Below, in pieces: positions 78-227 of a DNA stretch of 227 nucleotides. The stretch lies in NCBI RefSeq assembly GCF_003334355.1, contig NZ_QOWP01000119.1, one strand, 5' to 3'. Position numbers and translations under genes: made by a program. The notes beneath the pieces are model-generated. The model ran no database searches. It was given only the letters and a program-made list of their open reading frames with translations, and was not told the DNA's origin. Source of the stretch: Escherichia coli (GTDB lineage Bacteria > Pseudomonadota > Gammaproteobacteria > Enterobacterales > Enterobacteriaceae). How positions within the stretch are numbered: the first letter of the stretch is position 1; every line of letters starts with the position of its first letter.

Positions 78-227
78 ACGAAAATTGCTTATCACGCGTT
101 GCGTGATATTTTCGTGTAGGGTGAGCTTTCATTAATAGAAAGCGAACGGCCTTATTCTCTTCAGCCTCACTCCCAACGCGTAAACGCCTTGCTATTCACT
201 TTTCATCAGACAATCTGTGTGAGCACT
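78..227 (-). other. 16S-23S rRNA intergenic transcribed spacer, 16S-to-tRNA-Glu segment (partial; 16S end lies beyond the window)
   Basis: The reverse complement begins AGTGCTCACACAGATTGTCTGATGAAAAGTG... and runs directly into the tRNA-Glu 5' end. I recognise this as the conserved sequence found shortly downstream of the 16S 3' end in Glu-type rrn spacers of E. coli and relatives. There is no credible ORF. Recognition is from recalled sequence, not a search, so exact species and operon copy are not established. Confidence 0.8.

Follow-up and report, generated by a model that had tools for sequence, protein, structure and literature searches.

A 227-nt stretch of Escherichia coli DNA (the window, by which we mean the whole of the stretch that was analysed) ends on its right in a segment that a first-pass annotation, made from the letters alone, had taken for one strand of the 16S rRNA processing stem. 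The question raised by this locus is whether the segment is indeed a functional RNA strand or a piece of neutral spacer, and, if it is functional, which strand of which helix it represents and where its partner lies.

Position of the window within the rrn operon

Read in reverse complement, the window corresponds to an E. coli 16S-23S spacer of the rrnG/rrnB type. Many complete E. coli chromosomes carry all 227 nt at 100% identity. A tRNA-Glu(UUC) gene with encoded CCA was identified at positions 2-77 on the minus strand by ARAGORN, by the Rfam tRNA model (60.1 bits) and by RefSeq annotation; this gene fixes the strand and shows the window to be 16S-23S spacer. Genomic context was inspected in K-12 ER1709 and in an unrelated strain isolated from human stool in India, and in both the RefSeq annotation gave the order clpB, 16S rRNA, tRNA-Glu and 23S rRNA, which is that of the rrnG position. 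The 16S gene and the leader partner discussed below lie outside the 227-nt window and were read from identical genomic copies.

In both strains inspected, 21 nt lie between the annotated 16S 3′ end (…GGATCACCTCCTTA) and window position 227. Trailer positions are given here with a plus sign and counted from the mature 16S 3′ end, and a window position equals 249 minus the trailer position. The segment flagged in the first-pass annotation, the reverse complement of 205-227, had been read exactly: it is the minus-strand 23-mer AGTGCTCACACAGATTGTCTGAT. It had been assigned to a region about 25-45 nt past the 16S 3′ end, which is the right place, with an exact offset of +22 to +44. The minus-strand 16S gene that had been expected 25-30 nt beyond position 227 is present and begins slightly closer, 22 nt past the window edge, in both strains well within the roughly 50 nt that had been set as a limit. 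As had also been anticipated, this gene ends in the anti-Shine-Dalgarno sequence, CCTCCTTA.

Other annotation of the window was sparse. In an Rfam scan at a permissive E-value, the tRNA was the only family found and none covered window 200-227, where the sub-gathering scores were at noise level (STnc420, 13.1 bits with a gathering threshold of 70; MIR6224, 11.9 bits with a threshold of 171). A family match is not to be expected here because the helix is formed by two strands that lie 1.6 kb from each other. The open reading frames in the window, 22-33 aa long, overlap the tRNA gene and a hairpin described below, and were dismissed as chance, non-coding frames.

Pairing of the spacer segment with the 16S leader

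The 23-mer at 205-227 (minus strand) is an almost perfect complement of a sequence in the 16S leader of the same operon, ATCAGACAATCTGTGTGGGCACT, at -128 to -106 (positions 810-832 of locus L001). The two are joined by 22 Watson-Crick pairs and one G·U, in agreement with the leader complementarity that the first-pass annotation had proposed. The predicted duplex between the 23-mer and the 180-nt leader has an energy of -40.2 kcal/mol, compared with -12.9 ± 2.3 kcal/mol for shuffles (n=1000, best -22.9; z = -11.7). When the 80-nt trailer was paired with the leader, the duplex energy was -77.7 kcal/mol and that of shuffles -36.3 ± 4.4 kcal/mol (z = -9.4). Based on the predicted pair list and on the covariation described below, the core of the pre-16S leader-trailer helix was delimited as 26 uninterrupted base pairs, whose trailer (3′) strand is window 202-227 on the minus strand. 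This strand corresponds to trailer +22 to +47, its partner is leader -106 to -131, and the range of 200-227 given at first pass was therefore apt. The helix runs past the window edge to about +6 after a one-nucleotide bulge, and trailer +6 to +20 is also paired.

The leader strand of the helix lies about 1.65 kb upstream of the trailer segment and includes boxC, TCTGTGTGGG, at -119 to -110 (L001 819-828), downstream of boxA, TGCTCTTTAACAA, at -144 to -132 (L001 794-806). BoxC, defined as UCUGUGUGGG in PMC10250234, makes up the middle of the helix's 5′ strand according to the same paper. Its complement occupies window 214-223 on the minus strand (RNA CUCACACAGA, trailer +26 to +35), and the single G·U within the boxC pairing joins -111 and +27.

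An extended pairing between trailer +51 to +80 (window 169-198) and leader -136 to -179, which includes boxA, was also predicted. It is interrupted and was not counted in the element, because the operons of one genome diverge from about +45, with a large indel from about +66, and because published truncations beyond +42 were without effect. This pairing with the boxA region is probably not functional.

The helix in question is well known. As PMC10250234 recounts, Young & Steitz first proposed it in 1978, with sequences separated by about 1,700 nt coming together to form an RNase III site, and Warner, Bundschuh & Fredrick (2023; PMC10250234) found that covariation backs a helix of 25-40 bp across Enterobacteriaceae. 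The segment studied here is the same element as the E. coli leader-trailer helix (hLT), or RNase III processing stem, of Young & Steitz 1978 and PMC10250234, with the same position, partner and sequence; the published 17S ends fall inside the E. coli helix, which is present in all seven rrn operons. In comparison with the full hLT, the window carries the basal trailer strand only, whereas the top (+6 to +21), the 16S gene and the leader are outside. The pre-23S leader-trailer helix rests on the same principle, in that the flanks of an rRNA are complementary, serve as an RNase III substrate and are required for subunit biogenesis (PMC10250234); however, it is built from the flanks of 23S, and its 5′ strand lies downstream of tRNA-Glu, beyond window position 1. 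As the complement of leader boxC (UCUGUGUGGG), the segment is also related to the boxB-boxA-boxC antitermination elements of rrn operons and of lambda nut, but it is a pairing partner in the spacer and neither constitutes such an element itself nor lies in the leader.

Conservation, covariation and alternative readings

Conservation within the species was surveyed in 5,426 complete E. coli genomes. A trailer probe (16S end to +51) and a leader boxA-boxC probe each matched a median of 7 places per genome, and both were present in 5,425 or 5,426 of the genomes. This median indicates that the element occurs in every rrn operon. The 23-mer at 205-227 has about seven copies per genome and was found in 5,425 of 5,426 genomes. 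In one K-12 genome, +22 to +44 is identical in rrnC and rrnG-type operons, the identity spanning +16 to +44, and the leaders of rrnC and rrnG, aligned over 166 nt (-158 to 16S +8), showed one difference, upstream of boxA.

Two differences between operons within the helix were observed. At the helix base, +45 to +47 (window 202-204) reads GAA in the rrnG type and AGG in rrnC (L123). The leader UUU is unchanged, and the AGG of rrnC still pairs with it through one A-U and two G·U pairs, making this a small case of intragenomic variation that keeps pairing. Outside the window, trailer +15 (L001 2494) is A in rrnG and U in rrnC. It faces leader U at -99, the same base in both operons, and the A-U pair becomes a U·U mismatch in rrnC, in the part of the helix reported to be the most critical.

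In order to follow the helix beyond E. coli, representative genomes were scanned with a 16S 5′ pattern, which yielded 120 gammaproteobacterial loci. Complete 16S with both flanks was available for 32 of these and, with L001 added, the set comprised 33 operons, from which one representative per genus or species was taken (n=16). With a 220-nt leader, 15 of the 16 had a strong cognate duplex centred at about +15 to +50 of the trailer (z from -5 to -11.6), and the mean duplex energy was -76 kcal/mol for cognate and -53 kcal/mol for non-cognate combinations. The apparent exception, Pseudoalteromonas citrea (z = 0.2), proved to be an artefact of where the leader had been cut off: once the leader was extended to 500 nt, the partner was located at about -250 to -230 (z = -9.4, ΔG -64.8 kcal/mol). 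The leader-trailer duplex is therefore kept in 16 of 16 gammaproteobacterial genera.

Covariation was scored on the 26-bp E. coli helix in an ungapped alignment of the core helix from 12 genera. Of all cells in this alignment, 96.2% were paired, compared with 31-43% in slid registers. Changes on both sides were found in 12 of the 26 pairs and in 39 cells across the 12 genera, and none of 500 shuffles reached the observed covariation values. For example, enteric leader CAGAC / trailer GUCUG is replaced by CAAGC / GCUUG in Pseudomonas, Cellvibrio and others, and CUG/CAG by UCG/CGA or GCG/CGC. The core GTGTGGG / C(C/U)(C/U)ACAC shows no variation other than wobble across the 12 genera. The predicted duplex served as the anchor for the alignment, a choice that biases it somewhat towards structure, but an artefact is very unlikely in view of the slid-register control and of how many distinct types of compensatory pair were seen. 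Such covariation between species confirms, at the level of sequence comparison, that selection acts on the pairing.

With these data at hand, two other readings of the segment can be weighed. The two strands of the helix are near-perfect complements, so that the plus-strand sequence of 205-227, ATCAGACAATCTGTGTGAGCACT, is a single base off the true leader, ATCAGACAATCTGTGTGGGCACT, and might be mistaken for the boxC-bearing leader strand of an rrn operon on the plus strand. We give this reading next to no chance of being correct. All 227 nt match the 16S-tRNA-Glu spacer at 100% identity, the tRNA-Glu gene is on the minus strand at a distance of 127 nt from the segment (window 78-204), and the diagnostic position 222 is A, the trailer base, and not G. 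Moreover, real leaders have boxA, and the plus strand carries no TGCTCTTTAACAA upstream of the segment.

The segment might also be conserved as a single-stranded motif, such as a protein-binding or antitermination-like spacer site, with its complementarity to the leader being incidental. The invariance of the CACAC/GTGTG core across genera would fit such a motif, as would the original definition of boxC, that of a conserved sequence element with no clear role (PMC10250234). However, sequence conservation of this kind does not account for the 12 of 26 pairs that change on both sides with pairing kept, for the much poorer pairing of non-cognate leaders and trailers from distant genera than of cognate ones, or for the published compensatory mutants (PMC10250234), and we regard it as highly improbable. 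Taken together, the analyses lead us to conclude, with a probability of about 97%, that window 202-227 encodes on its minus strand the trailer side of hLT, the pre-16S leader-trailer helix, in an E. coli rrn operon. Nothing in the evidence contradicts the leader-trailer helix reading.

Processing, 30S biogenesis and the variable spacer block

The ends of 17S pre-rRNA have been reported at 115 nt on the 5′ side and 33 nt on the 3′ side (PMC3996153 and PMC6912228), and one of these two papers describes 17S as the RNase III product, citing Young & Steitz for the long 5′/3′ helix. On our pair list, both published ends map inside the helix. The partner of -115 is +31, which leaves +32 and +33 as a 2-nt 3′ overhang on a molecule that spans -115 to +33. 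Such an overhang is the geometry of an RNase III product. The predicted RNase III cut on the trailer strand (minus strand) would then fall between +33 (window 216) and +34 (window 215), and that on the leader, outside the window, is inferred to lie between -116 and -115. Placing the ends on the pair list in this way is a consistency check on a predicted cleavage, and the cut geometry is consistent with the published ends.

The importance of the helix for the small subunit comes from published mutagenesis. Disruption of the helix abolishes the activity of orthogonal 30S subunits, and activity is restored when pairing is restored (PMC10250234). Truncation of the trailer to 1589 or 1584 had no effect, truncation to 1579 or 1574 cost about 75% of activity, and truncation to 1569 or further abolished it (PMC10250234). 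Translated into window coordinates, this assay shows positions up to 206 (beyond +42) to be dispensable and 207-220 to contribute, and it places 221-227 (+22 to +28) in the most critical stretch, +6 to +28, of which +6 to +21 lies just outside the window. Judged by these data, the window contains the basal and less critical portion of the helix. Cells lacking RNase III (Δrnc) show the same dependence on the helix (PMC10250234), which means that its role in 30S biogenesis is independent of RNase III. The first-pass label of an RNase III processing stem is therefore supported by the 17S ends inside the helix and covers part of the function, the helix being essential for active 30S subunits with or without RNase III (PMC10250234).

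Based on these observations, we regard the following course of events as the most likely; the sequence of the two strands and their pairing are shown by the present analysis. The whole rrn operon would be transcribed as a single precursor, in which the trailer (+22 to +47) would emerge about 1.65 kb after the leader strand (the boxC region, -131 to -106), anneal to it and loop out the 16S rRNA. In the rrnTAC model, boxC is kept near the RNA exit channel for annealing with the trailer (PMC10250234). RNase III would then cut both strands, at -116/-115 and +33/+34 (window 216|215), positions that are taken from the literature and whose geometry was checked here, and the cleavage would release 17S pre-rRNA with its 2-nt 3′ overhang. 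According to the literature, the 33 remaining trailer nucleotides would be trimmed later by other RNases. Apart from cleavage, the published mutagenesis suggests that the helix would also serve as a scaffold required for active 30S subunits.

Next to the helix, the spacer carries an operon-specific block at about 81-183 (minus strand; spacer +66 to +168), which is missing from rrnC of the same K-12 genome. The 16S-tRNA-Glu spacer is 171 nt long in the window and 85 nt in rrnC of K-12. A probe for the block (window 78-200) matched 2,791 of 5,426 complete E. coli genomes, with a median of one copy. The block may be the long ITS-Glu variant or the "spacer loop" of the older E. coli literature; a search of the accessible literature for such a variable block, under the name "ribosomal spacer loop" and for rrnB/rrnG, yielded no directly relevant work. 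Within the block, a bipartite hairpin of 7 + 8 bp, CGAAAAU-AUCACGC-AAC-GCGUGAU-AAGCA-AUUUUCG, was observed at window 79-117 on the minus strand. It ends one nucleotide before the 5′ end of tRNA-Glu, which is the RNase P site. The predicted fold of the spacer at 78-204 has an energy of -35.8 kcal/mol (z = -2.7). Since the hairpin lies in an operon-specific block, it is not required in all tRNA-Glu operons. One could speculate that the block modulates the speed of trailer annealing or the processing of tRNA-Glu and 16S, and that 30S maturation differs between operons as a result, but we consider this unlikely. The block is the sole part of the window without an account in the literature examined.

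In conclusion, the element at the right edge of the window is already known, having been proposed in 1978 and dissected by mutagenesis in 2023, and its identification advances no open question. The value of the analysis is one of annotation: it establishes what the window is, on which strand the operon runs and how far away the 16S gene lies, and it marks 202-227 as functional RNA rather than neutral spacer.
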